A stretch of 64,000 nucleotides of DNA, taken from the NCBI GenBank assembly GCA_004298325.1, contig SCUF01000253.1:6762-70761 (forward strand). The letters run 5' to 3'. Position 1 is the stretch's first letter. Each line of letters starts with the position of its first letter. Below are positions 6,244 through 51,783 of the stretch, in pieces. Made by a program: the position numbers and the translations under genes. Source of the DNA: Betaproteobacteria bacterium. GTDB lineage: Bacteria; Pseudomonadota; Gammaproteobacteria; Burkholderiales; SG8-39. The notes under the pieces were generated by a model. The model saw only the letters and a list, made by a program, of their open reading frames with translations, was not told the DNA's origin and did not search any database.

Positions 6244-6247
6244 GACG

Positions 6248-6466: not shown

Positions 6467-6545
6467 GAAGGCCTCCGTGGTCAGGGTTGACTGTTACGCG
6501 CTTTCGATTCTGCCACGGAGCGCCTTCGTGGTTCGCTAGGAGACG

Positions 6546-7485: not shown

Positions 7486-7497
7486 GGCCGCGCATCC

Positions 7498-8781: not shown

Positions 8782-8782
8782 C

Positions 8783-8888: not shown

Positions 8889-8916
8889 AGTGACGGAAGG
8901 ACGGGAGCCTGGCTGG

Positions 8917-9830: not shown

Positions 9831-9931
9831 TTGAACGCGCGGCAGGCCAGCACCATCGGCCCGCCACCCTCGGGGAGCAGGCGACGGTTACCCCGACTGG
9901 CACGGACGCCTCCGTTCGCCCTGAATCAATC

Positions 9932-9970
9932 GAAGCCCGATCGGCAGCAGCGGTCGGGCTTCTGCGTTTC
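9932..9970 (+). terminator. hairpin terminator-like element
   Basis: 12-bp stem GAAGCCCGATCG / CGGTCGGGCTTC (one G-U pair), 7-nt loop, then TGCGTTTC. Confidence 0.5.
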
Positions 9971-10042
9971 AGGTAGCGCCAGCGTCGCGGGTCCTTCCAG
10001 CAAAAAAATCGTATACGGCCGCCAAGACCGCGAAAAAGCGCT

Positions 10043-10065
10043 AGTCAGTCAACTCTCGACTGACT
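10043..10065. promoter_or_regulatory. 8-bp inverted repeat upstream of the terminase small subunit
   Basis: AGTCAGTC (10043-10050) and GACTGACT (10058-10065), with a 7-nt spacer. Confidence 0.35.
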
Positions 10066-10109
10066 CAAGAGCATTGACGGCCCTCAAGCACCTAGTCTCA
10101 AGGCCCTCT

Positions 10110-24686: not shown

Positions 24687-24690
24687 CGCC

Positions 24691-27767: not shown

Positions 27768-28178
27768 ATGCGCCTTGAGGGCTGGGAGTCGCGCCTCCAT
27801 GCGGTGATCGAGGCGTCGCGGCATACGCCGTATGCGCTTGGCACGCACGATTGTTTCCGGGTCGCCTGCGCGGTGGTGGAGGCGCTCACCGGCGTGGACT
27901 ACTGGCCTACATGGGGGCGGTATGCGACCAAGCGGGAGGCGAAGCGCCTGATCGCGAGCCGCGGGCATGCGACGTTCGAGGAGGCGTTCTCGTGGCTCTT
28001 TGGGACGGCGTTCTCGGACGTGCGCCACGCGCAGCGCGGCGATATCGTCTGCATCCAGACCGAGGACGGCGAGAAGCACCTCGGCGTGTGCCTCGGGGCG
28101 CACGCGGCATTCACCGCGCCTGAAGGCGTGCTCTTCGTGCCGACGTTGACCTGTCTGGGTTGCTGGAGGATTGGCTGA
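27768..28178 (+). CDS. tail-associated NlpC/P60-like cysteine peptidase
   Basis: GTHDCFRVACAVVE (Cys) and QRGDIVCIQTEDGEKHLGVCLG (His) match the NlpC/P60 pattern. Confidence 0.6.
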   Translation: MRLEGWESRLHAVIEASRHTPYALGTHDCFRVACAVVEALTGVDYWPTWGRYATKREAKRLIASRGHATFEEAFSWLFGTAFSDVRHAQRGDIVCIQTEDGEKHLGVCLGAHAAFTAPEGVLFVPTLTCLGCWRIG

Positions 28179-30784
28179 TGCCGACGTCGATCATCGCTGC
28201 GGTCGCCGGCGCGGTCATCGGCGCGTGGGCCGAGGTCACCATCGGCACGATTCTCTTCGCCGGCCTCGTGCGCGGCGTCGTCGGCGCCGTCGTCTCCGGC
28301 GTCGTCGGCGGGGTGTTGCGCGGCGATACGGACGACGATCGCGGCACGCCGACGATCACGCAGCAGGGCCGCATGCTCACGGTGCGCCAGGCGGCCGCCC
28401 CGTGGCAAGTGATCTACGGCGAGCGCCGCGTGGGCGGCGTCTTCACGTTTATCGAGGTGTCGAGCGACAACCAGACGCTGCACCTGGTGATCACGCTCGC
28501 GGGGCACGAATGCAATGCGATCGGCAACATCTACTTCGACGACGAGGTGGTGTCGCTCGACGGATCGGGCAATGCAACCGGCAGGTATGCGGGCTACGTG
28601 CACATCGAAAAGTCGCTCGGGAATGAAGGCGATGTGCAGCCCTTCGCGACGCTGCAGGCGGCGTCGGCCGGCAAGTGGACGTTGAACCACAAGCAGCGGG
28701 GGCGCACGAAGCTCTACGTGCGCCTGACGGCGAATCCGGACCTTTTTCCGAGCGGCACGCCGAACATCACCGCGGTGGTGCAGGGCCGCAAGATGTACGA
28801 CCCACGTTCGACGCTCACGGCCTACTCGGCCAACGTGGCGCTCTGCGCAAACGACTACCTGACGAACGCCACTTTCGGCCTGGGCGCGACTTACGCGACC
28901 GAGATCGACGAGACGACGCTGATTGCCGCGGCGAACCTCTGCGACGAGGACGTGTCGCTCGCCGCTGGCGGGACGGAAGACCGCTACCGTTGCGGCGGGG
29001 CGTTCGACTTGACGGTGCAGCCGCGCGAGGTGCTGGGGCGGCTCCTCGCGGCGATGGCCGGGCACGCGGTGAACGTGGGCGGCAAGTGGTATCTCTTCGG
29101 CGGGGCCTACGAAGCGCCGACGATTACCCTCGACGAGGGCGACCTGGCCGGGCCGATCCGGGTGCAGTCGCTCGTGGGCCGGCGCGAGAACGCCAACGGC
29201 GTCAAGGGCAAATTCACCGACCCGAATTCGAGCTGGCAGGTCACCGACTTCCCGGCGCTCGGCTCGAGCACCTACATGGCCGAGGACGGCGGCGAGCGGG
29301 TCTGGAAGGACATCGACCTTTCGGCGTTTGTCACGAGCGGCACGCAGGCGCAGCGCCTGGCGAAGATCGAGCTGCTCAGCCTGCGGCAGGGGCTTTCGTT
29401 TGTCGCGCCGTTCAAGCTGACGGCCTACCAGGTGCAGACTGGCCGCACCTTTGCGATGAACAACACCAAGTTCGGCTGGTCGGGGAAAGCCTTCCGAGCG
29501 GACTCTGGACGATTCACGGTGAACGCCGACGGCACGCTCGGATTCGAGATCGCCGGCCGCGAGATCGCATCCACGATCTGGGATTGGAACTCCTCCGAAG
29601 AGCAGACGGTCGATGCGGCGCCGAATTCGAACCTGCCGGATCCGTTCACAACGCTTCCGCCGGGCGCTCCGGAGGTGACCGAGTCGCTCTATGTCACGCG
29701 AGACGGCGGCGGCACGAAGGCGAAGGCGAGCGCGACCTGGGCTGCCTCCACGGACCCCTACAGCGATCGCTACCAGCTCGAGTACAAGCTCGTCACCGAC
29801 CCGGAATACACGGTGCGGCCGACGATCCGCGCAACCGCCGACGAGGTGCTGGACATCGCCCCGGGGTTTTACGACTGGCGGGTGAAGGCGATCAGCGCGA
29901 TCGGCGTGTCGTCGGCCTATTCGTACTCGCAGAAGGAGATCTTCGGGCTGTCCGCGCGCCCGGCCGATGTCTCCGGGCTCACGCTGCAGGCGGCGGGCGG
30001 GATCGCGGTGCTCGCCTGGACGCTGCACCCCGACCTCGATGTGCGTGAAGGCGGGCACATCCAGTTCCGCCATTCCGAGGCGACCAGCGGCGCGGTGTGG
30101 TCCGAAGCGTTCACCATCGGCGACGCGGCGCCCGGGAACGCGGGCCAGTGGATCCTGCCTCTGAAGGCGGGAACCTATCTTGCCAAGGCGGTGGACAGCT
30201 CCGGTCTCACCAGCGTCAACGCGGCGTCGATCTCGACCAAGCAGGCTTCGATCCACGCTTTCAGCACGCTGAACACGGTGCAGGAGGACAGCACCTTCAG
30301 CGGCACGCACTCCAGCACGATCGCGATCGACAGCGTGCTCAAGCTGCTCGGATCCGGGATGTTCGATGCGATCCCCGATCTGGATGCGGTGGCAAGCCTC
30401 GACGCCTATGGCGGGGTGGCCGCGAGCGGCACCTACACCTTCGCGACCGGCGTCGACCGGGGCAGCGTCGAGCGCGTCCGCGTGACCTCGCAGATCGACG
30501 GCATCATCGTCAACCTGAACGACAAGATCGACTCGCGCACCGGCAGCATCGACGACTGGCTGAACTTCGACGGCACCGACGGCGCGGAGGCCGACGCCTA
30601 CGTCGAGATGCGCGAGACGGACGACAACCCGTCCGGAAGCCCTACCTGGAGCGCCTGGAATCGGCTCGATGCCTCCGAGCACGAATGCCGCGGGCTGCAA
30701 TTCAGGGCGCGGCTCTCGACCACGGACCCGGCCTACAACGTGCATATCGACACGCTGCGCGTGCGAGTCGACCAACGGACCTGA
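28178..30784 (+). CDS. host specificity / central tail fibre protein (gpJ-like)
   Basis: 868 aa from ATG at 28178 (TGATG). ...RGRTKLYVRLTANPDLFPSGTPNITAVVQGRKMYDPRS... is a Phage-tail_3-like core. Confidence 0.8.
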   Translation: MPTSIIAAVAGAVIGAWAEVTIGTILFAGLVRGVVGAVVSGVVGGVLRGDTDDDRGTPTITQQGRMLTVRQAAAPWQVIYGERRVGGVFTFIEVSSDNQTLHLVITLAGHECNAIGNIYFDDEVVSLDGSGNATGRYAGYVHIEKSLGNEGDVQPFATLQAASAGKWTLNHKQRGRTKLYVRLTANPDLFPSGTPNITAVVQGRKMYDPRSTLTAYSANVALCANDYLTNATFGLGATYATEIDETTLIAAANLCDEDVSLAAGGTEDRYRCGGAFDLTVQPREVLGRLLAAMAGHAVNVGGKWYLFGGAYEAPTITLDEGDLAGPIRVQSLVGRRENANGVKGKFTDPNSSWQVTDFPALGSSTYMAEDGGERVWKDIDLSAFVTSGTQAQRLAKIELLSLRQGLSFVAPFKLTAYQVQTGRTFAMNNTKFGWSGKAFRADSGRFTVNADGTLGFEIAGREIASTIWDWNSSEEQTVDAAPNSNLPDPFTTLPPGAPEVTESLYVTRDGGGTKAKASATWAASTDPYSDRYQLEYKLVTDPEYTVRPTIRATADEVLDIAPGFYDWRVKAISAIGVSSAYSYSQKEIFGLSARPADVSGLTLQAAGGIAVLAWTLHPDLDVREGGHIQFRHSEATSGAVWSEAFTIGDAAPGNAGQWILPLKAGTYLAKAVDSSGLTSVNAASISTKQASIHAFSTLNTVQEDSTFSGTHSSTIAIDSVLKLLGSGMFDAIPDLDAVASLDAYGGVAASGTYTFATGVDRGSVERVRVTSQIDGIIVNLNDKIDSRTGSIDDWLNFDGTDGAEADAYVEMRETDDNPSGSPTWSAWNRLDASEHECRGLQFRARLSTTDPAYNVHIDTLRVRVDQRT

Positions 30785-37152: not shown

Positions 37153-37303
37153 GCTAGCAATGCTCGCACCTTCGTCTGATGTGTCGTTTGCGCTTGAAAT
37201 TCTCAGCAGGTAAGCGTTAGCATATTCTTATAGAAAGAGTTATTGTGCGGTGGGAGCATTCTGTTGCTGCTTTCTGTCCGCTCAGCTACTCAGGGGCCAG
37301 ACG

Positions 37304-37870
37304 ATGTCATGGATGAACTCCGAGCTGATCCTCTACCACGGATGTGATTGGGATTCAGCAGACGCGATCTGCCGTCCTTCGTCAACTTTTCCTGTCCACT
37401 CTATAAACCTTATGCTGTGTACACCGCACACCGACTTCGGCAAAGGTTTCTATGCCACCACCAACCTTCATCAGGCAAAGAATTGGGCGAACGATCGCAC
37501 GACGCTGCTGAGGATTACTGATCCCCAAAAGTTCGCGGCTGTTGTAGAGATTGCGGTTGAGCGAGAGCACCTCGCTGCTAACGCGAGTGTGTTGTGCTTC
37601 GTAACGGAAGGTAGCGCAGCGACTTCGGACTTTTGGGAGTTTATAAAGCATTGCCGTACGGGTAGTACTACTTCTGGCCATGAGCTAAGTGCGAACAAGA
37701 AGGATCGGATGTATGACTTAGTATTTGGCCCCGTGTCGCTTTGGACCCAAACGCTGGTCATCAAGGATTGCGACCAAATTAGCTTCCATACTCAAGACGC
37801 TCTCAAAGCGATCAAGAAAGCAACGGTCAAGTACCAATGCACTCAGACTAACCCCCACTTTATTGTCTAG
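37304..37870 (+). CDS. DUF3990-like protein
   Basis: LILYHGC...HTDFGKGFYATTNLHQAKNWAN...MYDLVFGPV...DQISFHTQDALKAIK matches the DUF3990 motif series. Confidence 0.65.
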   Translation: MSWMNSELILYHGCDWDSADAICRPSSTFPVHSINLMLCTPHTDFGKGFYATTNLHQAKNWANDRTTLLRITDPQKFAAVVEIAVEREHLAANASVLCFVTEGSAATSDFWEFIKHCRTGSTTSGHELSANKKDRMYDLVFGPVSLWTQTLVIKDCDQISFHTQDALKAIKKATVKYQCTQTNPHFIV

Positions 37871-38382: not shown

Positions 38383-38814
38383 ATGGCGAAGTGGACTAAG
38401 GGTCAAAGCGGCAATCCAGGCGGGCGACCAAAGGAAATGGGCTATCTCCGAGAGATAGCGCGTAAGCACCGCGAGGCGATCGAAACGCTTGTCACGGTAA
38501 TGCAGAACTCGGAAGCGACAGACCAAGCACGCGTCCACGCTGCAACGGCGTTGCTGGATCGCGGCTGGGGTCGCCCCGCTCAGACGATCACGAACAGCAA
38601 CGGCAACACCCTGAAGGTGGATGAGAAGGCGTTTGAAAGCACGCGTGAGTTGCTCGCTAAGTACATAGACAAACCTGAGAACACGCGGGAAGCAGCGTCA
38701 GCCATCGTTACCGCTGCGGATGAAGGCGACGCCCCCGCGTCGGGCGTTACGCATCAGCGGTTCGTCGGGTTCTATAACTCCGCGGCAGTTTCCGCTCGCG
38801 CCCGCCAAACCTAG
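38383..38814 (+). CDS. DUF5681-like protein (mobile-element associated)
   Basis: N-terminal KGQSGNPGGRPK motif. Confidence 0.65.
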   Translation: MAKWTKGQSGNPGGRPKEMGYLREIARKHREAIETLVTVMQNSEATDQARVHAATALLDRGWGRPAQTITNSNGNTLKVDEKAFESTRELLAKYIDKPENTREAASAIVTAADEGDAPASGVTHQRFVGFYNSAAVSARARQT

Positions 38815-39450
38815 AATCGGTCCCCATGCGAGCAAGACTTGCATTCCGTGCGGCCCAGATCGCGCACGAGCGGATGATCTCCTACTTGCGGGACGTGCCG
38901 GCAGGAGTCGTAGAGGCGGACCGCGGCAAAGCCGAGCAGCTAACGCGGGACTGCGAAAATACTTTCTAGGAATGGATGGCAGCCTGCAGAGAGTTCACGG
39001 TCCACTAGCCGCGAGAGCAGTGGCTCCGCGAGCAGCTAGCCAAAGATCAAGACGGCCCACGGTCGCGCGACCGATGCGGAGCGCAGGAAGTGGAACGAGC
39101 GTCGACAGAGACGTCCGCAACGCCAACGCATGACGTCACGGACCGAGTGGCGTGAGCGGATCGACGATTCGAACTCAGGCTCAGTCATTGTGACGATCGC
39201 CATTCGCAACGTTGCTCCACTCGAGATCGAGATTCCCAGATGGAAATGGAATCCATTCTTGTTCTTGGCTGTTCTCGATCGATATCCCGCGGCTGGGGCC
39301 TGTGCACTAGGTCCACACACACGTGCCCTCATTGCGTAGCTTGGCTCGAGGCACCGGCAATGAGGCCTGGTCGGACGATTCCCGCTCCGCTTCCCAGTCT
39401 ATAGTTGCATAATCGTACGAGCGGGCTTTATCTAGTTGACGAGGCTTGCC

Positions 39451-40140
39451 ATGTACGCCGCGATTTCAGGCAAGGCAGCGCAAAAAGGGGGGTCTCGTTT
39501 CCGCGAGAAAACGGTGCGCCTTAACTATTTCACCAGCGCGCAATTTGGCCTGCAGGCGCTGAGCAAGCGTCGCATTAAGATTGCTCGACTTACCGAGCTG
39601 AATGATCCGTTTGAGTTCCTGGCAGCCGATCTATCGGACAAGAACAGTCGGACGCTTCTTCGTCAAACGAGGGCAACGCTTTCGGAGACGAAAGGAATTC
39701 TGTGTTTCAGCAGGGTTTGGAACAATCCGGTTTTGTGGGGTCACTATGCAGACAAGCACCATGGCGTCGCTCTCGGGTTCGAAGTACCGTCAACGCATGC
39801 ACATCCAATAGCGTACGTTAGCTCACGCCTTTCGTGGCCGGCCGTTATTGATGGAGCGTTCGTGTGCCGACTTCTTTTTACCAAATTTTCCCACTGGAGC
39901 TACGAAGATGAGTACCGCGTTTACGTTGACCTCGATAGTCAAGAAGGCGGACTGTACTTCGCAGATTTCTCAGAGACGTTGGCTCTGCGTCGCGTCATTG
40001 TCGGGTGTGAATCGGCACTTACGCGTGCTGATATCCGCGAAGCGTTGGGTGGCCACAGCGATATTGATGTGTTCAAAGCACGCCCCGCCTTTAAGTCCTT
40101 CCGCATCGTAAGAAACAGAGACGAGTCGCTATGGGCTTAG
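39451..40140 (+). CDS. DUF2971-like protein
   Basis: ...ARLTELNDPFEFL...GILCFSRVWNNPVLWGHYADKHHGVALGFEV...FTKFSHWSYEDEYRV... The track start TTG at 39436 is also possible. Confidence 0.7.
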   Translation: MYAAISGKAAQKGGSRFREKTVRLNYFTSAQFGLQALSKRRIKIARLTELNDPFEFLAADLSDKNSRTLLRQTRATLSETKGILCFSRVWNNPVLWGHYADKHHGVALGFEVPSTHAHPIAYVSSRLSWPAVIDGAFVCRLLFTKFSHWSYEDEYRVYVDLDSQEGGLYFADFSETLALRRVIVGCESALTRADIREALGGHSDIDVFKARPAFKSFRIVRNRDESLWA

Positions 40141-40264
40141 TGACAGGTTTGAGCGGAACGACAACCGCATCCGTCAAGGAGCCAAGCTTTGGGTCAACCC
40201 GTCCACGCGTGACCGCTGGCTGCAGGCGACCCGCATGAAGCCTCGAGCCAAGTAGGGAGCCGTT

Positions 40265-41158
40265 ATGCGAGCGTTCTGGATTTACAAATGCAATAACAAG
40301 AACGAGGAATATCAGCGCACATGGGGTGATTGGGCGGAAGTATTCGATAGCACAAAGGCTAAAGGGTGGGGCTCAACGAGCATAGTTGCCGAACTTGCCC
40401 AGGCCAAGATCCGAGATATGGTCATCGCATATCAAACGGATCGGAACGAGCTTGTCGGTGTCGCTCGCGTTGTAGGATGGAGACCTCAGGGCAGGTACAA
40501 ACGACTCGTTGTAAAGCCAATCCGGAGAATTGGCGTACGCGTCCGGCCGCTGAAGGAATCAAACGCTAAGGTCGCGCGAATTCCGGCGCTGCAGCCGGGG
40601 AGGATCGGTACGCTCTATTCGGTCTCGCGAGCAGATGCCCATACTTTGCTTCGGGCCGCCGGACTGCGTCTCGCTGAGAATGCTAATGAACCGAGCGACA
40701 ACGCTGAACGCTCAGTTCAGGGTGCCGGGTTTGGCACGCCAGAACGGAACAAGCTCGTTGAGCGAGAGGCAGTGAGACACATAAAGCGCCATTTTCGACG
40801 TCAAGGTTGGTCAGTGACGGACGTATCATCTGAGAACCGGGGTTACGATCTCCTCTGCAAGCGCCCCGGCGAGCGTAGTCACGTCGAGGTCAAGGGCGCG
40901 CGTGGTGAAGGCCAGCAATTCATCCTCACCGCTAGAGAGCTCGATACTTGGACCAAGGACAAACAGTTCGTACTCGCTTTCGTCGGTAGCGCGCTATCAG
41001 CCAAACCTTCGCTCTCGTTCTTTCCGAGCGCAGCGGCTCAACGGGAGTTTGAGTTACGTCCACTTTCTTTCATTGCACGAAGGCAGCCTAACCCCGACAT
41101 CCAAACCAGCGCCCGTAAGAGCCGCCGCCACCGAAACGGAGCCTCAAGCGCCGGATGA
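40265..41158 (+). CDS. PUA-like (EVE/ASCH-type) domain fused to a DUF3883 restriction-endonuclease-fold domain
   Basis: N-terminus FWIYKCN...IRDMVIAYQTDRNELVGVARVV...GTLYSVSRADAHTLL is an EVE-like pattern. C-terminus RGYDLLCKRPGERSHVEVKGARGEGQQFILTARELD is the DUF3883 D...EVK core. Confidence 0.65.
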   Translation: MRAFWIYKCNNKNEEYQRTWGDWAEVFDSTKAKGWGSTSIVAELAQAKIRDMVIAYQTDRNELVGVARVVGWRPQGRYKRLVVKPIRRIGVRVRPLKESNAKVARIPALQPGRIGTLYSVSRADAHTLLRAAGLRLAENANEPSDNAERSVQGAGFGTPERNKLVEREAVRHIKRHFRRQGWSVTDVSSENRGYDLLCKRPGERSHVEVKGARGEGQQFILTARELDTWTKDKQFVLAFVGSALSAKPSLSFFPSAAAQREFELRPLSFIARRQPNPDIQTSARKSRRHRNGASSAG

Positions 41159-41207: not shown

Positions 41208-42404
41208 ATGAACGTCGCTACTTCTTCACGCGTTGCCGTGGAGCTCTGCGCCGGATTCGGAGGAATCGGCATCGGCCTACGAGCACTCGGGTTTCACATC
41301 GCAAGAGCGTACGACTCATGGGAACAGGCAGTTTCGATTTACAACCACAACTTCGGTGACAAGGTCGCGACGACCGCCAATCTGCTGAGCGAAAAAGGCC
41401 TCCAACTTGTGGATACCGACCGCGACCGCATCGGCGACGTTGAGCTCCTCGCTGCCGGGCCGCCCTGCAAGGGTTTCAGCCAGCTTAGAAATGGTTACCA
41501 CGACGGACGTAACGGCCACAATCGCGTGCTGGCGGCCATGCCCGACTATGTTGCAATTCTCCGGCCGCGCCTTTTTCTCTTGGAGAATGTTCCGGACCTT
41601 ATAAGACATCGCGACGGAAGGACTCTCGCCGACATCTTGGAACGGCTGGAGCGGCCAGCGAAGCACCTCCGATACCGAGTCGAGTACAAGGTCTACGACG
41701 CGGCGCTCTTCGGAACGCCGCAAGCTAGACGCAGGATCTTGATCTTTGGCGTCCGCAGCGGTGCGAAGGAACGGCTCCCGGAACCCGGACCCGATCTCGC
41801 CCCACTCTTTGCGGCAGTCCGCCACCAAGGAAGGATCCCGAAGGAGTTCAACCAGTACTTAGAGGCCCTAGCGGACCCGGAGAACGCAACGCTTACCTCT
41901 GCAAGGCAAGCACTCTCCGATCTGCCTCTCCTCGGCCCAGGCGAACCAGAGGCTGAGAGACTCTATGCCTCTGAAGCAAAAAACGCGTTTCAGCGATGGG
42001 TGCGGACTGGTGCGCCCGCGAAGCTCCGTGACACTCGAACGCCGGCGGTCAATGCCGAGACTGTGAAACGCCTGCGACATGTCCCACCTGGCGGGTGCGC
42101 TAGGGTGATTCCAGAGGGGCATCTCAACGGACTCGCGAGGCGGTACGGTTCGGCCTACAGGAGGCTACACCCCGACGCCCCTTCGACCGCGCTTTCAACA
42201 AAGTACGACTGTGTCTACCACTACAAGGAGCAGCGTTCGCTATCCGTACGGGAGTACGCCCGCATTCAAGGGATTCCGGATTGCATTACATTCCCAGCGA
42301 GCCTGGTCTGTCGGCGGAGTGCGTATGAAATGATTGGCAACTCGGTGCCGCCTCTACTGATCGAACGGGTGCTCGGCCAGGCGATCGGCAACGGGAACGC
42401 CTAG
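41208..42404 (+). CDS. DNA (cytosine-5) methyltransferase
   Basis: Motifs ELCAGFGG (I), PPCKGFS (IV), ENV (VI), QARRR (VIII), GNSVPP (X). The ATG at 41208 lies within the longer track ORF 40902..42404. Confidence 0.92.
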   Translation: MNVATSSRVAVELCAGFGGIGIGLRALGFHIARAYDSWEQAVSIYNHNFGDKVATTANLLSEKGLQLVDTDRDRIGDVELLAAGPPCKGFSQLRNGYHDGRNGHNRVLAAMPDYVAILRPRLFLLENVPDLIRHRDGRTLADILERLERPAKHLRYRVEYKVYDAALFGTPQARRRILIFGVRSGAKERLPEPGPDLAPLFAAVRHQGRIPKEFNQYLEALADPENATLTSARQALSDLPLLGPGEPEAERLYASEAKNAFQRWVRTGAPAKLRDTRTPAVNAETVKRLRHVPPGGCARVIPEGHLNGLARRYGSAYRRLHPDAPSTALSTKYDCVYHYKEQRSLSVREYARIQGIPDCITFPASLVCRRSAYEMIGNSVPPLLIERVLGQAIGNGNA

Positions 42405-42405
42405 A

Positions 42406-43182
42406 ATGAAATCTGCGCCCCCTCTCAGACTAGGCGCGGTAAAGCGCCTCGCCCTCATCGATGCCGTGCTTGATTCGGCCTACGGCACGCCGGAGGCCGA
42501 TCTCGACAACAAGTCTGATCCACTCGACGAGGCGATCTACATCATCCTGAGCTTCCAAACCGATCTTGCGCGGTTCAGATCCACTTGGTCTCGACTGCGC
42601 GCCGCATACCCATCGTGGGACGCGCTCGAGCGAGCTGCGGTTCGCGATGTCACGCGGATTCTTCGTGACGGAGGCCTCCACAGACAGAAGACCCGGACGA
42701 TCCGCCGGTTACTCGCAGAGGTCCGTAAAGTCGCCGGCGAGCTTTCTCTCGATCGCTTGCGCCTGATGAATAACGAGGACGCTGAGGCATTGCTAGTGCG
42801 ACTCCCCGGCCTGTCGTGGAAGTCGGCTCGCTGCGTCCTTCTGTATAGCCTCGGACGCGACGCCCTCCCTGTTGACAGCAACACATTTCGCATTCTCAAA
42901 CGAACTGGTGTTCTGTCGAGACCCGCCGTCTATCGACGGCGCTCACTGCACGATGCCATTCAAGCCGCTGTACCCGCGCACCGCCGCCGTGCTTTGCATG
43001 TGAACCTTGTTGTGCACGGGCAGCGCATCTGCTTGCCACGTAGCCCGCGGTGCACGCTCTGCCCGTTGCTTGTCGAATGCCCGAAGGTTGGTCTTCCATC
43101 CGGTGCACGCAAGCGCAAACAAGCGCCCCCCGTAAAGGCGCCAAACGCGCACGCTGGCGGTGGAGGAGATGCCAGGCTGTAG
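42406..43182 (+). CDS. HhH-GPD superfamily DNA glycosylase (EndoIII/MutY/Mig family) with FeS cluster loop
   Basis: LPGLSWKSARCVLLYSLGRDALPVDSNTFRIL (HhH-GPD) and CLPRSPRCTLCPLLVEC (C-x6-C-x2-C-x5-C). Starts 1 nt after the methyltransferase stop. Confidence 0.85.
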   Translation: MKSAPPLRLGAVKRLALIDAVLDSAYGTPEADLDNKSDPLDEAIYIILSFQTDLARFRSTWSRLRAAYPSWDALERAAVRDVTRILRDGGLHRQKTRTIRRLLAEVRKVAGELSLDRLRLMNNEDAEALLVRLPGLSWKSARCVLLYSLGRDALPVDSNTFRILKRTGVLSRPAVYRRRSLHDAIQAAVPAHRRRALHVNLVVHGQRICLPRSPRCTLCPLLVECPKVGLPSGARKRKQAPPVKAPNAHAGGGGDARL

Positions 43183-43236
43183 AGAAGGGTTGTAGGGAGG
43201 AAGCCCGAACAACGAGCAGGAGGGGGGAACGTCCCG

Positions 43237-45276
43237 GTGGTCGTGGAAGTGCTTTTGCTCCTCAGCGGAGTTGGTCTCGCGCTGGCAGCTGGGTTCGCGG
43301 CAATAGTGGTGCGCGCGCGCCGCCGTCACCATGGCGACAACGAGGCGCATAACAAAGCAGAGCGAGAAGCACAGCGCCAGGCCGAAGAGCCACGCACTCG
43401 TGAGGAAGCTCGCGCGGTGGCGGAGCAAGAAGCGCAGCGACAAGACGAAGAAACGCGCAAGCGTGTCGAGGAGGAAGCTCGCGCGGAATCAGAGCGAGCA
43501 GCGAAACAACAAGCCGAAGAAGCAGCGCGCGCGGCGGCGGAGCGAGAGGCACAGCGCCAGGCTGAAGAGGCACGCACTCGTGCCGAGGAAGTTCGCGCGG
43601 AATCAGAGCGAGCAGCGAAACAACAAGCTGAAGAAGCAGCGCGCGCGGCGGCAGAGCGAGAAGCACAGCGCCAGGCCGAAGAGGCACGCACTCGTGAGGA
43701 AGCTCGCGCGGTGGCGGCGCAAGAAGCACAGCGAGAAGCCGAAGAGGCACGCGCTCGTGCTGAGGAGGCCCAATCCCGCGCCGAAGATCAACATGGGGGT
43801 GCCGACGCCGATGACAGTGCGGAGAACGGCCCACTAACCGAACCGTTACGCGCGCGTGACCGTACGCCGAGGATTCCCCGGCAATACCGTCCAACTGGAC
43901 GCACCCCAACGCCGCAACGGCCCACGGCGACACCACCTACAGAGCGAGAGGCACGCGATCGTGCGACGCCGATCGAAGTTCGCCTCGAGTTCCAGAAAGG
44001 TGGCTTCTGCCGAGTGTCGTTGCTCCCGCGCCGTGCCGCGGACATGCCGGTCGAGTTCGCGGTCGAGGGTACTGGCAATCCTCTCGAGCTCCTGGAGCTG
44101 CAGGATGAGTGGTATGAGGACGTTGTTCTGCCAGACATCGGACACCTGCTCATGCAGGGCGTCGAGTGGGCAGGCGCATTGCCCGGTGGCGGCGTGGGCA
44201 GGCTGTCGCTAAGTGGCCGTGGGCTTTACGTGTTGACTCGCCATACTGATCTAAGCGGCTTCGTCAGCACGGTGCGCCTGATCCTCGGTGAGGAGCACGT
44301 GGTTCTCTGCCTCGCCGAACTTCTGCCGGACGTCCGTGCAGCCATCGCACTAACCGAAGGTCCTGAGCCGGACGTCGTTCACTCCGACAAGGGAATCCCG
44401 GTAGGGTGGGTTGGCCTCCGGGGCGTGCGTCCCCGGAAGCCGATCACGCCTAGTCCGGCTGGCGACATGCTCGATGCGCTCCGCCCACTTCCAGATGTGG
44501 AGATTGCATTGAACGGCGGCATCAGAATCGATCGCCAGAGTTGGCTTCGCGGCTTCCCGCCTGCGATCCACGTTCTCGGCGATACCAGCACGATCGGCGC
44601 ACTCACTATCGACGGGCAGGAAGCGCAACTCTCTCTCAATGGAGCGTATGTTGTTCCGGGCTGGGATTCCGCGGGTGAGCACACGATATGGTGCGTAAGC
44701 ACTTCACGAACGTACGCTATTCGGAGCGGTGCCGAGGAGTGGGCGGATTGGGATGCATACGCTTGGTCACTTGGCGAACCGAGTGCACGCGACACGCATT
44801 CGCGGCCCGCGATCTGCGGCGTACTCGTGCGCGCGCCAAAGGCCGTCCAATCAGATACCCGCCCTACGATTGTGGCCGTATCGAATCCAGTACTGATTGG
44901 CGCGAAGCCCGGCGAGATCGAAGTTTGCGTTCCCCGCAAGGATGTGCCCTCCGGATCCTGCGTTGCATTTCCAACTTTTGAACCCGTCTGGGCAATCCCG
45001 GCCAGTCTCCGTCGCAGGGACAAGCGAGGCGCTCGAGTGATTCTGATCGGCCCCCAACGACCTGTGGAAACGGAAACCCACCCGGCGAATAAGCGACCCA
45101 AGGGACGACGCATGTCTCGTCGCCGTGCTCTGGGCCTGGGAACGTACGCGTGGTGCAGGTCAATTCTCGCCGCTGGCCGAAAGGGGTTGCAGCCTGACCC
45201 GCGGCACCGTGACATCGAGAACCTGTGGAAGACCTATAAACGCTTTGCCAAGGTACTCTGGGGAAACCGTCGATGA
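43237..45276 (+). CDS. membrane-anchored protein (679 aa) with charged repeat stalk and unknown C-terminal domain
   Basis: GGAGGGGGG RBS, GTG at 43237. TM LLLLSGVGLALAAGFAAIVV, ~170 aa of EAQRQAEEAR-type repeats, a Pro/Arg/Thr linker, then ~430 aa with no motif I recognise. Confidence 0.7.
   Translation: MVVEVLLLLSGVGLALAAGFAAIVVRARRRHHGDNEAHNKAEREAQRQAEEPRTREEARAVAEQEAQRQDEETRKRVEEEARAESERAAKQQAEEAARAAAEREAQRQAEEARTRAEEVRAESERAAKQQAEEAARAAAEREAQRQAEEARTREEARAVAAQEAQREAEEARARAEEAQSRAEDQHGGADADDSAENGPLTEPLRARDRTPRIPRQYRPTGRTPTPQRPTATPPTEREARDRATPIEVRLEFQKGGFCRVSLLPRRAADMPVEFAVEGTGNPLELLELQDEWYEDVVLPDIGHLLMQGVEWAGALPGGGVGRLSLSGRGLYVLTRHTDLSGFVSTVRLILGEEHVVLCLAELLPDVRAAIALTEGPEPDVVHSDKGIPVGWVGLRGVRPRKPITPSPAGDMLDALRPLPDVEIALNGGIRIDRQSWLRGFPPAIHVLGDTSTIGALTIDGQEAQLSLNGAYVVPGWDSAGEHTIWCVSTSRTYAIRSGAEEWADWDAYAWSLGEPSARDTHSRPAICGVLVRAPKAVQSDTRPTIVAVSNPVLIGAKPGEIEVCVPRKDVPSGSCVAFPTFEPVWAIPASLRRRDKRGARVILIGPQRPVETETHPANKRPKGRRMSRRRALGLGTYAWCRSILAAGRKGLQPDPRHRDIENLWKTYKRFAKVLWGNRR
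43340..43790 (+). repeat. in-frame tandem repeats encoding a charged helix
   Basis: Two near-identical ~114-bp units (43483-43596 and 43597-~43707) inside a degenerate array of related units. Confidence 0.75.
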
Positions 45277-46220
45277 ACGCTAACTCGCTGCTACTCTGGA
45301 TGTCGGCGCGGCGTCACGGTTCGTGGCAGCAGTTTCGCGGCGCAGTTGAGGAACTGCAGCTTGGCGAAGGTGATGAACTTGAGGGAGAGAGCGACGATGC
45401 AGCGGACCTCTTTTCCCTACCGCCCCACCAGACACTCCGATTCAACCTTCAGCGCCTCGGACACGCTGAGTTCTTTGCGGGAGCTGGAGACGGTGCAGAC
45501 TGGCGGGTTACGCCGCCAAGCCTAGCGGTAACACAGCACGCGTCCGGTTGGCTCGGCATTGTTGTCGGCGCCCGTTCGTTAACGCTTCTGCAGCGCATTC
45601 GCTCAGCTGCCGGGGACGCAAATATCGAGACTCTCTTGGTACCGGGATATCCCGACCAGATTCTGATCTCAGCCAACGACAAAAGCACACTCTTTGCGTT
45701 GGCGAATCGGGCCGGCCTTCTATCGCAGAGTGATGCCCCAGCCGCCCTTTTGGCGTGCCTCCCAACTGTCGATGACCCATGCGTGCGCTATCCCACACAA
45801 CTACCCCTGGGCGCCGCCTGGAAGATCGATCGATTTTCTCCGGACGACCTTGCTTGGCATTCTGCGACTCGCGAGGACGCTGCTGCCGTGTCTGACGGTC
45901 TCTTCCGATTCGCTCTTCGGCACCAAAACCACATGCTGCTTTGCCGGAGGGGCGAACCATTTCGAGTTCCCGGCCAAGTAGGCAAATATATCGTCCTTCG
46001 GCATAGGCGCCAAGTTCTCCAGTACGACCGTGAGATCCGATCGCTCGCACTGCCGCCAAGTTGCCGGCCGCCATTCTTGGTCGAGCGAGCCCTGATCTTG
46101 TGCTCTGGATCGCCGCCTTCGTACGAGCGCGGACCGCGAGGGCGTGTTCTCCGGTACCAGCAGATTCCGCAAGACATTGCTTTAACCGCAGCCGCACTAC
46201 TCCGCCAGGAGCTCAGATGA
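45273..46220 (+). CDS. hypothetical protein (315 aa), translationally coupled on both sides
   Basis: ATGA overlaps at 45273-45276 and 46217-46220; no motif recognised. Confidence 0.65.
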   Translation: MNANSLLLWMSARRHGSWQQFRGAVEELQLGEGDELEGESDDAADLFSLPPHQTLRFNLQRLGHAEFFAGAGDGADWRVTPPSLAVTQHASGWLGIVVGARSLTLLQRIRSAAGDANIETLLVPGYPDQILISANDKSTLFALANRAGLLSQSDAPAALLACLPTVDDPCVRYPTQLPLGAAWKIDRFSPDDLAWHSATREDAAAVSDGLFRFALRHQNHMLLCRRGEPFRVPGQVGKYIVLRHRRQVLQYDREIRSLALPPSCRPPFLVERALILCSGSPPSYERGPRGRVLRYQQIPQDIALTAAALLRQELR

Positions 46221-49200
46221 GTAATCCACTCACTATCTTCGAGAATCTTCGCGACACGTATTTCCGGTATCTCGACAGTCCGTTTGATCTCCGTTACCCG
46301 GACCTCATTGCAGAGCGCCGCGCGCTCCTCGACGTAGATGGCCGACTTTACAGACGCCCGCTCATCGAGCCCGTTCCGACATATCAGTTCTCCGGGCAGA
46401 CGTTCTCCCAAGCAGCGCAGGCCCTCCTCGGACCTATCTGGCCCCAGCCTGTTGTGGCGGATCTGTCCCAGTTCGTGTCGCAAGGACTCTTTCCACCAAC
46501 TCTCCCAAACGGGCAGCCCCGCGAACTGTACGCACACCAGCGGGAAGTTTTCGAACAGTCGGTCATTCACGGCCACGATGTCGTAGTGACTACGGGAACT
46601 GGTTCAGGGAAGACGGAGTGTTTTCTGCTTCCTATTGCCGCAGGATTGGCTAGAGAATCAGTGAATTGGCCAGCGCCCGGTCCTCTGCCAGCGCAGTGGG
46701 ACTGGTGGAATCACTGGACCATGCAGGGAGGTCGGCGTCGTTATGCCCCTCGGATCGCCCAGCGAGCTCATGAAAGTCGCACACCAGCCATCCGAGCACT
46801 TATCCTCTACCCGCTCAACGCGCTCGTGGAGGACCAGCTCGCACGCTTGCGCGACGGTCTTGACGGCGCCGGTGCCAGAGCTTGGCTCCAAACGCATCGC
46901 GCAGGGAACCGGATCTACTTCGGGCGCTACACGGGACGGACGCCCGTGTCGGGGAATCGCACTTCGGCGACCACGAATAGGCTTCGCGCAGAGCTCGCTG
47001 ATACGCACCGAGACGCTCAACTTGTAGTGGGGACTCCGGCGGCACGGTTCTTCGCGAACATGGACGGTGGTGAGATGTGGTCGCGATGGGACATGCAGGA
47101 CCACCCGCCGGACATCCTGATCACCAACTACTCGATGCTGAACATCATGTTAATGCGCAGCGCCGAGGCGCCGATTTTCGAACGGACGAAGCAATGGCTT
47201 GAGCAGGACCCCTCGAACGTCTTTCATCTCGTTGTCGACGAGCTGCACACCTATCGCGGGACCCCCGGTACTGAAGTCGCGTACCTCATTCGAGTGCTCC
47301 TCGACCGCATCGGTCTGCCGCCAAACTCGGACCAGCTGCGCATCATCGCTTCAAGCGCATCGGTGGCCACTGGCGTCATGGGTCTCCAGTACCTCGAGTC
47401 ATTCTTCGGCCGCGATCAGAATCGGTTTCGCATCGTTGGTGCTGCCCCTCAGCCGCTCAGCCCTGGTGCGTTCGGTCCGATGCAGGCAAACGTCGCGGCG
47501 TTGCGGCAACTCCGTAACGATCTGCGAGCATCAACCACATTGACCGCGTCTATTGCGACCGCCTTCCAAAACGCAACGGGTGCGCCAGCGGCGTCCCCTG
47601 GAGCGAGCGCGGAGTTAACGCTCGACTCTGCCCTTGCCCATGTGATGGCCGCCGACGCACTACGCTTGGCATGTGCAGCTGGGTCGGTTACCGCTCCTAT
47701 TCTGGAACCGAGATTCCCTGAACAGATCGCGTCGACGATGTTCCCGGGGCTTCCTCTTCCCGATGGTCTCGAAGCTGTAGAAGGTCTGCTCGCTGGTCTC
47801 TCTGCGGCACGTGGCGCGAGCGGCACTGCCTCACTTCCCGTTCGAGCGCATATCATCTATCGCAACTTGCAGGGCCTCTGGGCGTGCACGAACCCTGCCT
47901 GTACGCAGGCTCCACCTCGGACCGGCGCTCCACCCGTCGGGGCGCTTCACTACGTTCCGACGCTGACCTGCGGTTGCGGCTCGCGCGTACTCGAACTCCT
48001 GTACTGCGAGGCCTGCGGCGACACCTTCTTCGGCGGCTACCGCCGAGACACAGGGAATCCGAATGAGTGGTATCTCAGCCCGGACCACCCGGACCTTGAG
48101 GCGTCGCCGGACATGGCTTCGATGGATCGAGACTACCTTCGATATGCCGTGTATTGGCCAGGAGCGCCTGGCGTAACGCCTGCGTCCTTGCAATGGACCC
48201 AAGATCGTGTTGGAAGGGAGTGGCGAGCCGCACGCTTCACACCAGTAGACGGAAAAGTGGCGCTAGGTGGTCGCGGATACCTCTACTACGTACCGGCAAT
48301 GCACTCGCCACCTCCGCCCACTGGTGATAGCGCGCGCCAGGCGTATCCCGCGCGCTGCCCCCGATGTGACGCGGATTGGTCTCGACGGCAGATCGGGTCA
48401 CCAGTTCGCACGCTTCGCACCGGCTTTCAGAAGATCGCACAGGTCCTGTCAGACGCCCTCCTTCGGGACATCGCACCCGTTACCGCCAACCAGTCACGCA
48501 AGCTGGTGGTGTTCTCAGATAGCCGACAAGATGCCGCCAAGCTCTCGGCAGGAATGCGCTTCTCACACTATCGAGACGCGCTACGGCAGGCGATCACAGA
48601 CGCAGTCGGTGTCCAAGGAACAGGTGCGCTGGCGTTCGCATCGCAAGTTGGCGGACGGCATTTGCCGCCGCAGCAACAGGCGCTCGCCACAGCGTTTACT
48701 GGAATCCACCCGGCTGAGGCAGCTTCGCTCTCGATGGCCGCCAACCCCGCGACCGCGCATCTGCAGTCGCCATCGCATCCAAGCCTCACATGCCAAGCGG
48801 CAGCTCAGCAGATTTTGACTCGAGCCGCCCAGGGACCATTCCACATTGGGCAGCTCTCGGCTGACGCGTCGGCGCAGCTGCTCGCGAAGGGGATCAACCC
48901 TGGTGGTTTCACTCAGGACGTGCTCTGGACCGCCCCGCGAACGAGAGAGGGCAGCTGGCGAGACCTCTACATCTGGGGCACGCCCGGTACTATTCCCCAA
49001 GCGAAAGCGGCGGCGCAACTCCTCCAGCAACAGCGCGATCACTTGCGCAGGATCCAAGACCAGTCGGTCCTCGAAGCGATGGACGTCGTCTTCGCATCGG
49101 GACGCCGTAGCCTTGAGTCTCTTCGGCTGGCGTACGCAACCACCGACCGCATTGTCACGCCAGCGCCAAGCACGCTTGTCCAAGAAGCCGCTGACGGTGC

Positions 49201-51781
49201 GATTCGCTTGCTAGGGGCACGGCGCCGGCTCTCGACGCACGGAGCCGCGGGCCAGCCAAACCCGCCGGCGTACGTCGCGCAGTATCTCGCGGCGGTCGCG
49301 CAGCGACACGCCATGGCGCCGGCATCGTTCGTTGCGGACGTGCTGAATTACCTTAACCGCGCCGGCGTCCTTACACAGCACGTCCTTGTCGCGCAGAACC
49401 TGTGCCTTGCACTACCGGCGATGGTGTACTTTGAATGCGGTCAGTGTCGCCGAGTTCATCTGCATGCGGCGGGAGGCGTCTGCACGGATTGCCACATCCC
49501 CCTTGGCCCGGCGCAGCCCCTGGCAGGCGCTCAAGCTACGCGCGACTACTACAGCTATCTGGCCACGCAAGCCGGTCCGATCTTCCGGTTGAACTGTGAG
49601 GAACTCACTGGCCAGACGAACAAGAACGACGGTCGCAAGCGGCAGCGACTCTTCCAAGACATCTGCCTCCCCGCACCAGACGAGATTCAGGTCACAGATT
49701 CGATCGATCTGCTCAGCGTGACCACCACGATGGAAGCCGGTGTGGACATCGGCTCTCTGCTCGCCGTCATGATGGCGAATATGCCGCCGATGCGCTTCAA
49801 CTACCAGCAACGCGTTGGCCGTGCCGGGCGGCGCGGCGCGGGCTTATCGGTTGCGCTCACCCTTTGCCGCGGGCGGAGCCACGACGACTACTACTTCCAG
49901 CGGCCCGATCGGATTACCTCGGACCCGCCACCGCAGCCTTACGTTGACATGCGCCGAGAGGCCATCCTCCAGCGAGTACTAGCGAAGGAAGTCTTGCGGA
50001 AAGCGTTCGCGGCGCTCGGGCTGTTTGCTGCGCAAGGTGGTGACAGCGTACACGGTGAGTTTGGAAATGCATCCGACTGGGGCACTTCGCCCGCTCAGCC
50101 CCCGCCGGGGACACCGCCGGGTCTGACGGTCGAGCAGTTGGTGGATGCTTGGATCCAGAACAATGGACCAGAAATCGCCCATACGTGTGATGTGCTGCTG
50201 GCGTTCACGCCACCACAAATGCATGCGCAGAGGTCGGCGCTCATCGCCTACGTCCAAACGCAACTGGTGCCACGAGTCACCGCCGCCTCAGTGAATCCGA
50301 TGCTGCCGCAGAGGTCACTGAGCGAGCGACTCGCGAATGTCGGCGTGCTGCCCATGTTCGGATTCCCAACGCGCATCCGTTATCTCTTCCACGAGCGGCC
50401 AGGTGGGGCCTACGAGTGGCCCCCCGATGGCGTCGTCGATCGCGAGCTCGACATTGCGATAAGTCAATTTGCCCCGTCATCTGAAACGGTGAAGGACGGC
50501 CTGATCCACACAGCGGTGGGCGTCGTCGACTATCAGCCGCAAGGAACCTCTGTGGTGGAGCAACCGAATCCACTCGGCCCCCCTATTCCGATCGGGCTGT
50601 GCCGGCGCTGCGCAGCGGTCGATGGCTCCTCGAACCCTGCGCAGACATGTGCCGTTTGCGGGGCGGCACCTCCGGAATACGAGCTGGTGAACCTCTCACA
50701 ACCGCGTGGCTTTACTACTTGTCCGTGGTTTGGCGGAAGCCGCGACTTTGACGGAGTTTTCGAGTGGACCGCGCGCGCGTCGCGGCCAAAAGTCGGGGTG
50801 ACACCGATCGCGATGACGCCCGTTGCGAACTTCGAGATTTCGAGTGGGCAGGAAACCGTATATGTAATCAACGATAACGAAGGCCAGCAGTTTGAGTTCG
50901 AGAAGCTCGCCCAAGGTGAGACTTGGGTAACTCGCGAGGCGCTTGCTAAGATCGGGATCAACAACCCTGCTTTCGCGGGCGGCGGTGGTCCAGATCGGCG
51001 GGCGCTCGCCTCCGTCAAACCAACCGACGTTCTCGTCCTCGGGATTCAGAACTGGCCAGTTGGCATCAACGCTGTTCCCCTTCGGGTGGAGGGCCGGGCG
51101 GCGCTCTACTCTCTCGGGTTCCTCCTGCGTCGAGCTGCTGCCGTCCGCCTCGATATCCATGAACGCGAGCTTAAAGTTGGCCTTCGTGTATTGCAGGATC
51201 CGAATGGGCAGGTGGTCGGCCAAATATTTATGTCGGACAGCCTGGAGAATGGGGCGGGCTATAGCTCCTACTTTGGCACCCCTGCGGAAGCTGAGAGTTT
51301 GCTGCGCTTCGTTGTAGGCCAGACGAGTAACACCTTCTATGCCCCACTCGTTGCCCAGGCGAATCCACAAGGTTTGCCCGCGCACGGGGCTCTGTGCAGG
51401 ACCTCCTGCCCGGACTGCCTCCGCGATTTCAGCAACCTCGCGTACCACAACATTCTCGATTGGCGGCTGGGTCTCGATCTGGCGCGCTTGGCGCTCGATC
51501 CAGCGGCACCGATCGACTTCTCGGTCTCCTACTGGCAAGGCCTTGATACGGCAGCCGCTGGCCCCTACTTCGCGGCCATGCCCGGCTGGCAGCCGACAAC
51601 GTTTGGTAGCCTTCAGGCCGGACGGCGTGGAAACGAAGTCGAGATCGTGACCCACCCGCTGTGGAACACGGATCCCAACTTCGCTGGGCCGCTCCTCGCG
51701 ACAGCGTACGCGCAAGCGATTGCGGCTGGTTGCCAAGTGACGATGAAGTCCATCTTTGAAGTGCTGCGGAGGCCTTTCTAA
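46217..51781 (+). CDS. large DEAD/DEAH-box helicase with C-terminal DUF1998 (MrfA-type Zn) module (1854 aa); DruE/DrmAB-like
   Basis: GTGSGKT (46601-46615), DELH (47237-47248), QQRVGRAGRRG (49805-49837), several inserted CxxC Zn ribbons, and terminal CRTSCPDCLRDFSNLAYHNILDW (51395-). Confidence 0.9.
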   Translation: MSNPLTIFENLRDTYFRYLDSPFDLRYPDLIAERRALLDVDGRLYRRPLIEPVPTYQFSGQTFSQAAQALLGPIWPQPVVADLSQFVSQGLFPPTLPNGQPRELYAHQREVFEQSVIHGHDVVVTTGTGSGKTECFLLPIAAGLARESVNWPAPGPLPAQWDWWNHWTMQGGRRRYAPRIAQRAHESRTPAIRALILYPLNALVEDQLARLRDGLDGAGARAWLQTHRAGNRIYFGRYTGRTPVSGNRTSATTNRLRAELADTHRDAQLVVGTPAARFFANMDGGEMWSRWDMQDHPPDILITNYSMLNIMLMRSAEAPIFERTKQWLEQDPSNVFHLVVDELHTYRGTPGTEVAYLIRVLLDRIGLPPNSDQLRIIASSASVATGVMGLQYLESFFGRDQNRFRIVGAAPQPLSPGAFGPMQANVAALRQLRNDLRASTTLTASIATAFQNATGAPAASPGASAELTLDSALAHVMAADALRLACAAGSVTAPILEPRFPEQIASTMFPGLPLPDGLEAVEGLLAGLSAARGASGTASLPVRAHIIYRNLQGLWACTNPACTQAPPRTGAPPVGALHYVPTLTCGCGSRVLELLYCEACGDTFFGGYRRDTGNPNEWYLSPDHPDLEASPDMASMDRDYLRYAVYWPGAPGVTPASLQWTQDRVGREWRAARFTPVDGKVALGGRGYLYYVPAMHSPPPPTGDSARQAYPARCPRCDADWSRRQIGSPVRTLRTGFQKIAQVLSDALLRDIAPVTANQSRKLVVFSDSRQDAAKLSAGMRFSHYRDALRQAITDAVGVQGTGALAFASQVGGRHLPPQQQALATAFTGIHPAEAASLSMAANPATAHLQSPSHPSLTCQAAAQQILTRAAQGPFHIGQLSADASAQLLAKGINPGGFTQDVLWTAPRTREGSWRDLYIWGTPGTIPQAKAAAQLLQQQRDHLRRIQDQSVLEAMDVVFASGRRSLESLRLAYATTDRIVTPAPSTLVQEAADGAIRLLGARRRLSTHGAAGQPNPPAYVAQYLAAVAQRHAMAPASFVADVLNYLNRAGVLTQHVLVAQNLCLALPAMVYFECGQCRRVHLHAAGGVCTDCHIPLGPAQPLAGAQATRDYYSYLATQAGPIFRLNCEELTGQTNKNDGRKRQRLFQDICLPAPDEIQVTDSIDLLSVTTTMEAGVDIGSLLAVMMANMPPMRFNYQQRVGRAGRRGAGLSVALTLCRGRSHDDYYFQRPDRITSDPPPQPYVDMRREAILQRVLAKEVLRKAFAALGLFAAQGGDSVHGEFGNASDWGTSPAQPPPGTPPGLTVEQLVDAWIQNNGPEIAHTCDVLLAFTPPQMHAQRSALIAYVQTQLVPRVTAASVNPMLPQRSLSERLANVGVLPMFGFPTRIRYLFHERPGGAYEWPPDGVVDRELDIAISQFAPSSETVKDGLIHTAVGVVDYQPQGTSVVEQPNPLGPPIPIGLCRRCAAVDGSSNPAQTCAVCGAAPPEYELVNLSQPRGFTTCPWFGGSRDFDGVFEWTARASRPKVGVTPIAMTPVANFEISSGQETVYVINDNEGQQFEFEKLAQGETWVTREALAKIGINNPAFAGGGGPDRRALASVKPTDVLVLGIQNWPVGINAVPLRVEGRAALYSLGFLLRRAAAVRLDIHERELKVGLRVLQDPNGQVVGQIFMSDSLENGAGYSSYFGTPAEAESLLRFVVGQTSNTFYAPLVAQANPQGLPAHGALCRTSCPDCLRDFSNLAYHNILDWRLGLDLARLALDPAAPIDFSVSYWQGLDTAAAGPYFAAMPGWQPTTFGSLQAGRRGNEVEIVTHPLWNTDPNFAGPLLATAYAQAIAAGCQVTMKSIFEVLRRPF

Positions 51782-51783
51782 AC

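Follow-up and report, generated by a model that had tools for sequence, protein, structure and literature searches.

The analyses presented here suggest that the gene at positions 40265–41158 (+ strand) of a 64 000-nucleotide stretch of Betaproteobacteria bacterium DNA (contig SCUF01000253.1, positions 6762–70 761; in its full length referred to as the window) encodes a stand-alone restriction nuclease that probably acts against modified phage DNA in a modification-dependent (type IV-like) manner, reading the modification through an N-terminal EVE-like domain and cutting through a C-terminal NOV_C domain. The gene is complete, starts with ATG and carries a Shine–Dalgarno-like GGGAG (40255–40259, + strand) 5 nt before the start; its product of 297 amino acids (aa) is 100% identical to an entry from a Betaproteobacteria metagenome-assembled genome (MAG) labelled 'DUF3883 domain-containing protein'. 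An earlier note on this DNA, made from the sequence alone, had likewise proposed type IV-like, modification-dependent restriction; this is still the best reading, and it is strengthened by our finding that the same reader domain has been swapped onto HNH nucleases in other genomes.

In particular, the C-terminal domain is, on sequence and modelling evidence, a predicted PD-(D/E)xK nuclease with a restriction-endonuclease-like fold and intact catalytic residues. Pfam assigns residues 165–247 (40757–41005, + strand) to NOV_C (PF13020, formerly DUF3883) at E = 6.2e-12, scoring 45.9 bits (cut-off 22.1), and the GYDLLC...VEVKG core on which the earlier note had based its DUF3883 assignment is present as described (GYDLLC at residues 193–198, VEVKG at residues 207–211). 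The catalytic motif from D195 (in GYD) to E208-V-K210 (in VEVKG; 40847–40894, + strand) and the upstream catalytic residue E166 (40760–40762, + strand) are invariant in an alignment of 35 family members that are 43–78% identical. When the whole-chain model was used as the Foldseek query, the C-terminal half matched the Holliday-junction resolvase Hjc (1gef) and I-Ssp6803I (2ost), both PD-(D/E)xK nucleases, and the N-terminal half matched the EVE protein 2g2x and YTH domains. PADLOC recognized only the nuclease module of the protein, as the C-termini of TmtA and HmaA.

The N-terminal domain (residues 1–140; 40265–40684, + strand), a putative modified-base reader, is according to structural modelling a divergent EVE-type domain of the PUA-like superfamily which lies outside PF01878 by Pfam's own threshold. 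Residues 1–140 gave no Pfam match at E ≤ 0.1, the PF01878 gathering score (23 bits) not being reached, and NCBIfam holds no model for the 297-aa protein; relatives score below the threshold as well (14.8–18.1 bits), and PF01878 is matched at E ≤ 1e-3 in 7 of 82 family representatives, the best at 8.7e-6. The full-length AlphaFold2 model (predicted local distance difference test score, pLDDT, 86) shows two domains joined by a helix and a low-confidence segment; a linker that varies in length across the alignment (residues 141–155; 40685–40729, + strand; pLDDT < 50) comes after the long helix of residues 122–141. Modelled alone, residues 1–142 reach a pLDDT of 91.4 and a predicted TM-score (pTM) of 0.86, and the four best Foldseek matches of this model in the PDB are EVE structures (E 1.8e-6 to 2.6e-4, TM-score 0.57–0.66), namely 2p5d (MJECL36; E 1.8e-6), 1zce (Atu2648; E 4.5e-6, TM-score 0.66), 2g2x (PpR72) and 2hd9 (PH1033), with YTH domains, readers of N6-methyladenine (m6A), ranking next. 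These four are reported to be the structural-genomics proteins from which the EVE domain was defined (Bertonati et al., 2009). The structure comparison that the earlier note had recommended thus returned a PUA-like fold of EVE/YTH type, and of the two families that it had named, EVE and ASCH, the first stands and the second was rejected, no ASCH structure being found among the top 50 matches. Since sequence-profile searches of the PDB gave no EVE protein (no match at all with family alignment A1, and with A4 only spurious coiled-coil matches at E ~0.6), the EVE assignment rests on fold comparison together with the weak Pfam matches in relatives. Invariant or nearly invariant in this domain are W5, Y7, K8, C9, W23, F27, W35, G36, D51, Y56, Q57, R60, E62 and Y118, of which the aromatic ones (W5, Y7, W23, F27, W35, Y56 and Y118) may line a binding pocket. 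Because these residues and the catalytic ones are conserved throughout the 35-member alignment, both domains appear to be under purifying selection.

The distribution of the family shows how freely the two domains have been combined. Searching 5.8 billion proteins gave 217 homologues, which with few exceptions are 270–300 aa long and span both domains, and family members were also found in MAGs of Burkholderiales, Planctomycetota, Vicinamibacteria, Gemmatimonadaceae and Verrucomicrobiae. With residues 1–142 alone as query, phmmer retrieved 245 clusters (50% identity) at E ≤ 1e-3 from 1.84 billion representatives; the domain is almost always N-terminal, and the matching proteins fall into three length classes, of about 140–150 aa (the domain alone), 260–310 aa and 400–490 aa. 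Among the 82 representatives with 200 aa or more, Pfam detected NOV_C in 40, HNH_2 in 14, HNH in 4 and HNH_5 in 2. Consistent with this, 97 loci carrying family members, collected from genome and metagenome collections and by exact look-ups (L001–L097), include six in which an N-terminal domain 44–52% identical to ours is attached to an HNH or HNH_2 nuclease (L008, L009, L065, L067, L068 and L093) and one in which it is joined to a different, VEVKS-type nuclease-like C-terminus (L078). A sensor swapped among nuclease types is a signature of modification-dependent restriction enzymes that work independently of nucleoside triphosphates (NTPs) (PMC6765204; PMC7897488), and, as judged from these sequences, the reader moves as a module that can be paired with either a NOV_C or an HNH nuclease.

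The domain is also encoded as a stand-alone gene in other loci. In a Pirellulales MAG (L010) such a gene (9965–10432) is embedded in a type I restriction–modification (R-M) operon (4685–11976) with the order HsdR, HsdS, GIY-YIG/DUF4357 (RAMA-like), N-domain, HsdM; stand-alone EVE genes in type I R-M operons have been described before (PMC7641849), and the arrangement suggests that the free domain can also serve multi-subunit restriction systems in trans. No partner is shared by the three Planctomycetota loci with a stand-alone copy, where the downstream genes encode HsdM, a DUF1501 protein and an unknown protein. Two further forms were observed, one (L066, 5995–6807) in which the N-domain is followed by a C-terminal half of about 140 aa without Pfam match and another (L081/L082) in which the region beyond the N-domain likewise has none, L082 combining an extension of > 300 aa with an in-frame stop in the N-domain; these C-terminal regions may be further effector types or pseudogenes. 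With tblastn, a plasmid collection yielded only relatives of the C-terminal (DUF3883) domain and not the two-domain form, and a phage collection yielded no match to the EVE-like–NOV_C protein.

We looked for a conserved partner, such as an antitoxin, an NTPase or a methylase, in the 138 open reading frames (ORFs) lying within 3 kb of a full two-domain homologue at 39 non-redundant loci. No Pfam family is common to more than three of these loci, and an all-against-all BLASTP of the 138 ORFs gave a single cross-locus pair. At the nucleotide level, the window resembles eight other loci only over 40265–41125, that is, over the ORF alone. Among the annotated neighbours of homologues are integrases, transposases, BrnT and PIN toxins, Mrr, AbiU2, an SLFN/PLD-helicase pair and an N6_N4 methylase with a helicase; the close homologues (63–79% identical) adjoin toxin–antitoxin (TA) genes, transposases or an N6_N4 methylase. 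The contexts are therefore mobile- or defence-related and contain no conserved partner. As to the C5 methylase that lies next to the gene in the window, none co-occurs at the 39 loci, which for this sample answers the question of co-occurrence with Dcm genes raised by the earlier note in the negative: the window methylase has no tblastn match in L001–L097, and a six-frame search of 597 kb with a regular expression for C5-methylase motifs IV–VI hit the window itself only. Methylases of other specificities do occur, an N6_N4 methylase near relatives at L001/L014 and an N6 methylase near the stand-alone reader at L010.

The methylase in question is indeed, as had been noted, encoded directly downstream. 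It is Dcm/DruM-like (PF00145, E = 1e-49; TIGR00675; 41208–42404, + strand) and most likely starts at 41208, which leaves a gap of 49 nt after the reader-nuclease gene on the same strand; a scan of this gap found no sigma-70 promoter and no + strand terminator. The methylase nevertheless belongs to a conserved, Druantia-like cassette of six genes of its own (41208–52965, + strand), which recurs without the EVE–NOV_C gene in three other contexts (L098/L099, L100 and L101; 10001–21215 in L098, 10001–20648 in L100 and 10001–21218 in L101). In all three the methylase is the first gene, the upstream genes differing each time, and the order is Dcm, HhH-GPD glycosylase, a 700–800-aa protein, a DruL-like protein of about 315 aa, DruE of about 1850 aa and a DruK-like protein, the last being absent after DruE in L100; the cassette genes are 37–87% identical to the window copies. 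Nucleotide homology between the cassettes begins at 41229–41235, just within the methylase ORF. The boundary of two independent modules thus lies in the 49-nt gap. Moreover, methylase homologues at 75–85% identity are numerous and spread across phyla, and no PADLOC Druantia model matches the reader-nuclease. The annotation should thus be corrected, in that the neighbouring Dcm belongs to the Druantia-like cassette and is not the partner of the nuclease; since the low-GC island in which both lie holds several candidate defence genes, their adjacency is ordinary defence-island clustering. The paradox that the earlier note had seen in the pairing of such a protein with a writer of 5-methylcytosine (5mC) finds no support, nor does any functional pairing with the methylase, and two of the three solutions it had offered, namely that self-5mC serves as an off-switch and that the nuclease is a restriction partner sensing the unmethylated state, are argued against by the independent cassette and by homologues without a C5 methylase nearby. 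The third, that the reader recognizes a different modification (or the modification in a different sequence context), is the one that fits the data. A type IV enzyme beside a resident Dcm is in any case not in itself paradoxical: DUF3427–DUF3883 enzymes, among them some of the YenY4I/McaZI type, are found next to C5 methylases, a compatibility ascribed to different sequence contexts (Lutz et al., 2019; PMC6765204). ORFs of PUA-family endonucleases are rarely near methylases (PMC6765204).

We suggest that the EVE-like domain binds DNA and, by analogy with the EVE–HNH enzyme VcaM4I, may flip a modified base into a conserved aromatic/hydrophobic pocket, for which W23, W35, Y56 and Y118 are candidate residues. 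The helical linker would tether the NOV_C domain and possibly auto-inhibit or occlude the nuclease until substrate is bound, whereupon the PD-(D/E)xK domain, probably as a dimer, would introduce double-strand breaks near the modified site. In this way the enzyme could destroy incoming phage or plasmid DNA bearing a modification that the host does not make; a cognate methylase would not be needed, and the Dcm gene would adjoin only as fellow cargo of the low-GC island beside the prophage. Because the reader-nuclease and methylase genes are both intact on one contig, the reader presumably does not recognize the 5mC made by its neighbour, and because the family coexists with C5, N6_N4 and N6 methylases in different hosts, its ligand in those contexts is presumably not simple host-type methylation either. 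The ligand would then be a hypermodified base, of the 5-hydroxymethylcytosine (5hmC) or glucosyl-hmC type, or else methylation in a different sequence context; the coexistence hints at the former, the simplest assumption being 5hmC, glucosylated or not. m6A is a possible ligand too, given the modelled likeness to YTH domains; the YTH-like domain of Thermococcus gammatolerans McrB reads m6A.

Several points weigh against a stand-alone restriction enzyme of this kind. The searchable literature yielded no characterized member of this reader subfamily, and the likeness of the N-domain, itself below the Pfam EVE threshold, to PDB entries is one of fold and not of sequence. Its best structural matches are stand-alone EVE proteins without an assigned ligand and RNA-binding YTH domains, so that RNA or m6A may be what it binds, and the top 50 matches do not include VcaM4I. 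Additionally, DUF3427–DUF3883 enzymes had little nuclease activity in vitro (Lutz et al., 2019; PMC6765204), and the close, co-directional spacing of the gene and the methylase, with no predicted terminator between them, makes co-transcription, and hence some local functional link, possible.

Alternatively, the protein might be a toxin, an effector of abortive infection or an enzyme directed at RNA, whose EVE/YTH-like domain reads a modified RNA base, for instance in tRNA or rRNA, and whose nuclease, once triggered, cuts RNA or host DNA. The strong structural matches to YTH readers of m6A in RNA, the occurrence of EVE domains in TA systems (PMC7641849) and the frequency of TA genes (BrnT, PIN and nucleotidyltransferase/HEPN) among the neighbours all agree with such a role. 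Yet no antitoxin-like neighbour is conserved, NOV_C, like the matched Hjc and I-Ssp6803I, acts on DNA, the other nucleases to which the reader is fused are of the HNH type and cut DNA as well, and one free copy lies within a type I R-M operon; we consider this role unlikely.

The shared strand and the short gap devoid of a predicted promoter or terminator could also mean that the protein serves the neighbouring Druantia-like system as an accessory or sensor, either flagging modified or unmodified phage DNA for DruE or taking the 5mC made by DruM as a self (off) signal, and since EVE-like domains are fused to the related YprA helicases of DISARM class 1 (PMC12458937), such readers do work with this helicase family. 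We nevertheless hold it to be distinctly improbable, given that the cassettes at L098/L099, L100 and L101 start with the methylase and contain no EVE–NOV_C gene, that cassette homology begins inside the methylase ORF, and that L001–L097 hold neither a methylase nor any other small cassette gene. By tblastn, the other cassette and island proteins had no match in these loci except for DruE, which matched a single, distantly related helicase (28% identity) lying some 6 kb downstream in one genome, L005 (the same place as L020). A related and still less probable version is that the EVE–NOV_C gene and the Dcm-led cassette are co-transcribed as a layered unit, the nuclease being held off by the DruM-like 5mC or removing escaper phages that hypermodify their cytosines; if true, this would be the first case of a type IV reader tied to the methylase with which a helicase-based defence system marks self DNA.

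The resemblance of the C-terminal domain to the archaeal Hjc might further indicate that the protein serves DNA repair or recombination as a housekeeping enzyme, with an Hjc-like structure-specific nuclease guided to damaged bases by the reader, but this is very improbable for a family so rare and patchy (245 clusters in the search described above, from unrelated phyla), with variable flanks rich in mobile elements or defence genes and with the gene of the window in a low-GC island beside a prophage. Finally, that the protein and the adjacent Dcm form a type II-like R-M pair, in which the protein cuts unmethylated DNA and senses the unmodified state through its PUA-like domain, has nothing in its favour but that the two genes are neighbours and co-directional in this one window, and is scarcely credible, considering that no C5 methylase co-occurs at the 39 loci, that close homologues have other neighbours, that the methylase has its own conserved cassette, and that a methylase-dependent nuclease could not persist stand-alone in so many genomes.

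Considering instead a stand-alone modification-dependent nuclease, the overall kind of enzyme is known, and the novelty is limited to a rare, divergent subfamily of readers fused directly to NOV_C. Bell, Wolf & Koonin (2020; PMC7641849) list EVE–PD(D/E)XK and EVE–HNH fusions as predicted type IV enzymes. The EVE–PD(D/E)XK class has the same N-terminal EVE-type reader and PD-(D/E)xK nuclease as the window protein, and the defence-associated EVE domains of that study are equally divergent, many being 'detected only with sensitive methods'; the catalogue is computational, contains no characterized member of the class and does not mention DUF3883 in its main text. EVE–HNH enzymes have been characterized biochemically and structurally, VcaM4I being shown to flip 5mC or 5hmC into a hydrophobic pocket formed by P24, W82 and Y130 (PMC7897488). 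VcaM4I and TspA15I share with our protein the NTP-independent layout of N-terminal EVE sensor, helical linker and C-terminal nuclease (PMC7897488; PMC6765204), and in relatives of our protein the same N-domain is joined to HNH nucleases; the window nuclease, however, is of the PD-(D/E)xK (NOV_C) and not the HNH type, and its EVE domain is divergent, without a Pfam EVE match. The 5mC/5hmC specificity of VcaM4I is not transferable to the window protein.

DUF3883 itself is the catalytic domain of YenY4I (PUA-like + DUF3427 + DUF3883) and of McaZI-type enzymes (PMC6765204), which thus use the same DUF3883/NOV_C effector in a modification-dependent enzyme; the window protein differs from them in lacking the DUF3427 (SauUSI-like) specificity domain, in being half the size and in having a single EVE-like sensor. 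The MspJI family likewise unites a base-flipping reader of the PUA superfamily with a PD-(D/E)xK nuclease in one small polypeptide (PMC6765204), but there the reader is SRA-like and not EVE-like, the nuclease is of another subfamily, and no similarity between the sequences was found. McrB of T. gammatolerans, as cited in PMC7897488, restricts modified DNA by means of a YTH-like N-terminal domain, that is, an EVE/YTH-type reader; that system is GTP-dependent and needs McrC, whereas the window nuclease is fused directly to its reader and has no NTPase. The significance of the finding is modest, and the finding itself fairly ordinary. The subfamily of divergent EVE-like readers is small, rare and missed by current Pfam and NCBIfam models, and compact enzymes of this type are sources of modification-specific reagents, as MspJI, AbaSI and CMoRE have been for the mapping of 5mC and 5hmC.

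The cassette downstream deserves some description of its own. According to Pfam and PADLOC scans, the methylase is followed on the + strand by an HhH-GPD glycosylase (42406–43182), a 679-aa protein without Pfam or PADLOC family (43237–45276), a DruL-like protein (45273–46220), a DruE of 1906 aa (46061–51781, the true start being probably near 46214) and a DruK PD-(D/E)xK/Cas4-like nuclease (51784–52965). This set fits neither canonical type II Druantia (there is no DruG) nor type IV of PADLOC (defined as lacking DruM), and a literature search for DruK and DruL retrieved only unrelated papers. The Dcm of the cassette carries the motif PCK in place of PCQ. The glycosylase gene is tightly coupled to that of the methylase, with 1-nt spacing, and could provide a Vsr-like T:G repair function or act as an effector. 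The 679-aa protein has a hydrophobic start and then charged repeats of the EAQRQAEEAR type (around 43330–43800) which are TolA-like (E = 3e-8); its homologues in the other cassettes are 37–57% identical and 716–804 aa long.

As regards the wider setting, positions 1–36 000 are occupied by a siphovirus-like prophage of about 68% GC, with genes for the terminase large subunit (10822–12951), portal (13192–15003), tape measure (24583–26511) and a J-like tail fibre (28160–30784). No tRNA genes are present in the window. The prophage is directly abutted by the island of about 36 000–64 000, which has 50–62% GC and contains candidate defence genes. Upstream of the reader-nuclease lie a DUF3990 gene (37250–37870, + strand), which matches the PADLOC candidate PDC-M13 (E = 1e-16), and a DUF2971 gene (39436–40140, + strand), which matches PDC-S31 (E = 6e-23), with a DUF5681 ORF (38383–38814) between them. 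At the far end of the island, 53019–62139 (− strand) is taken up by three large, tightly packed ORFs of 466, 891 and 1682 aa, which have no Pfam or PADLOC match and may constitute an uncharacterized system; residues 803–927 of the 1682-aa protein weakly resemble (E = 1e-7) the C-terminal part of the SEDS glycosyltransferase FtsW.

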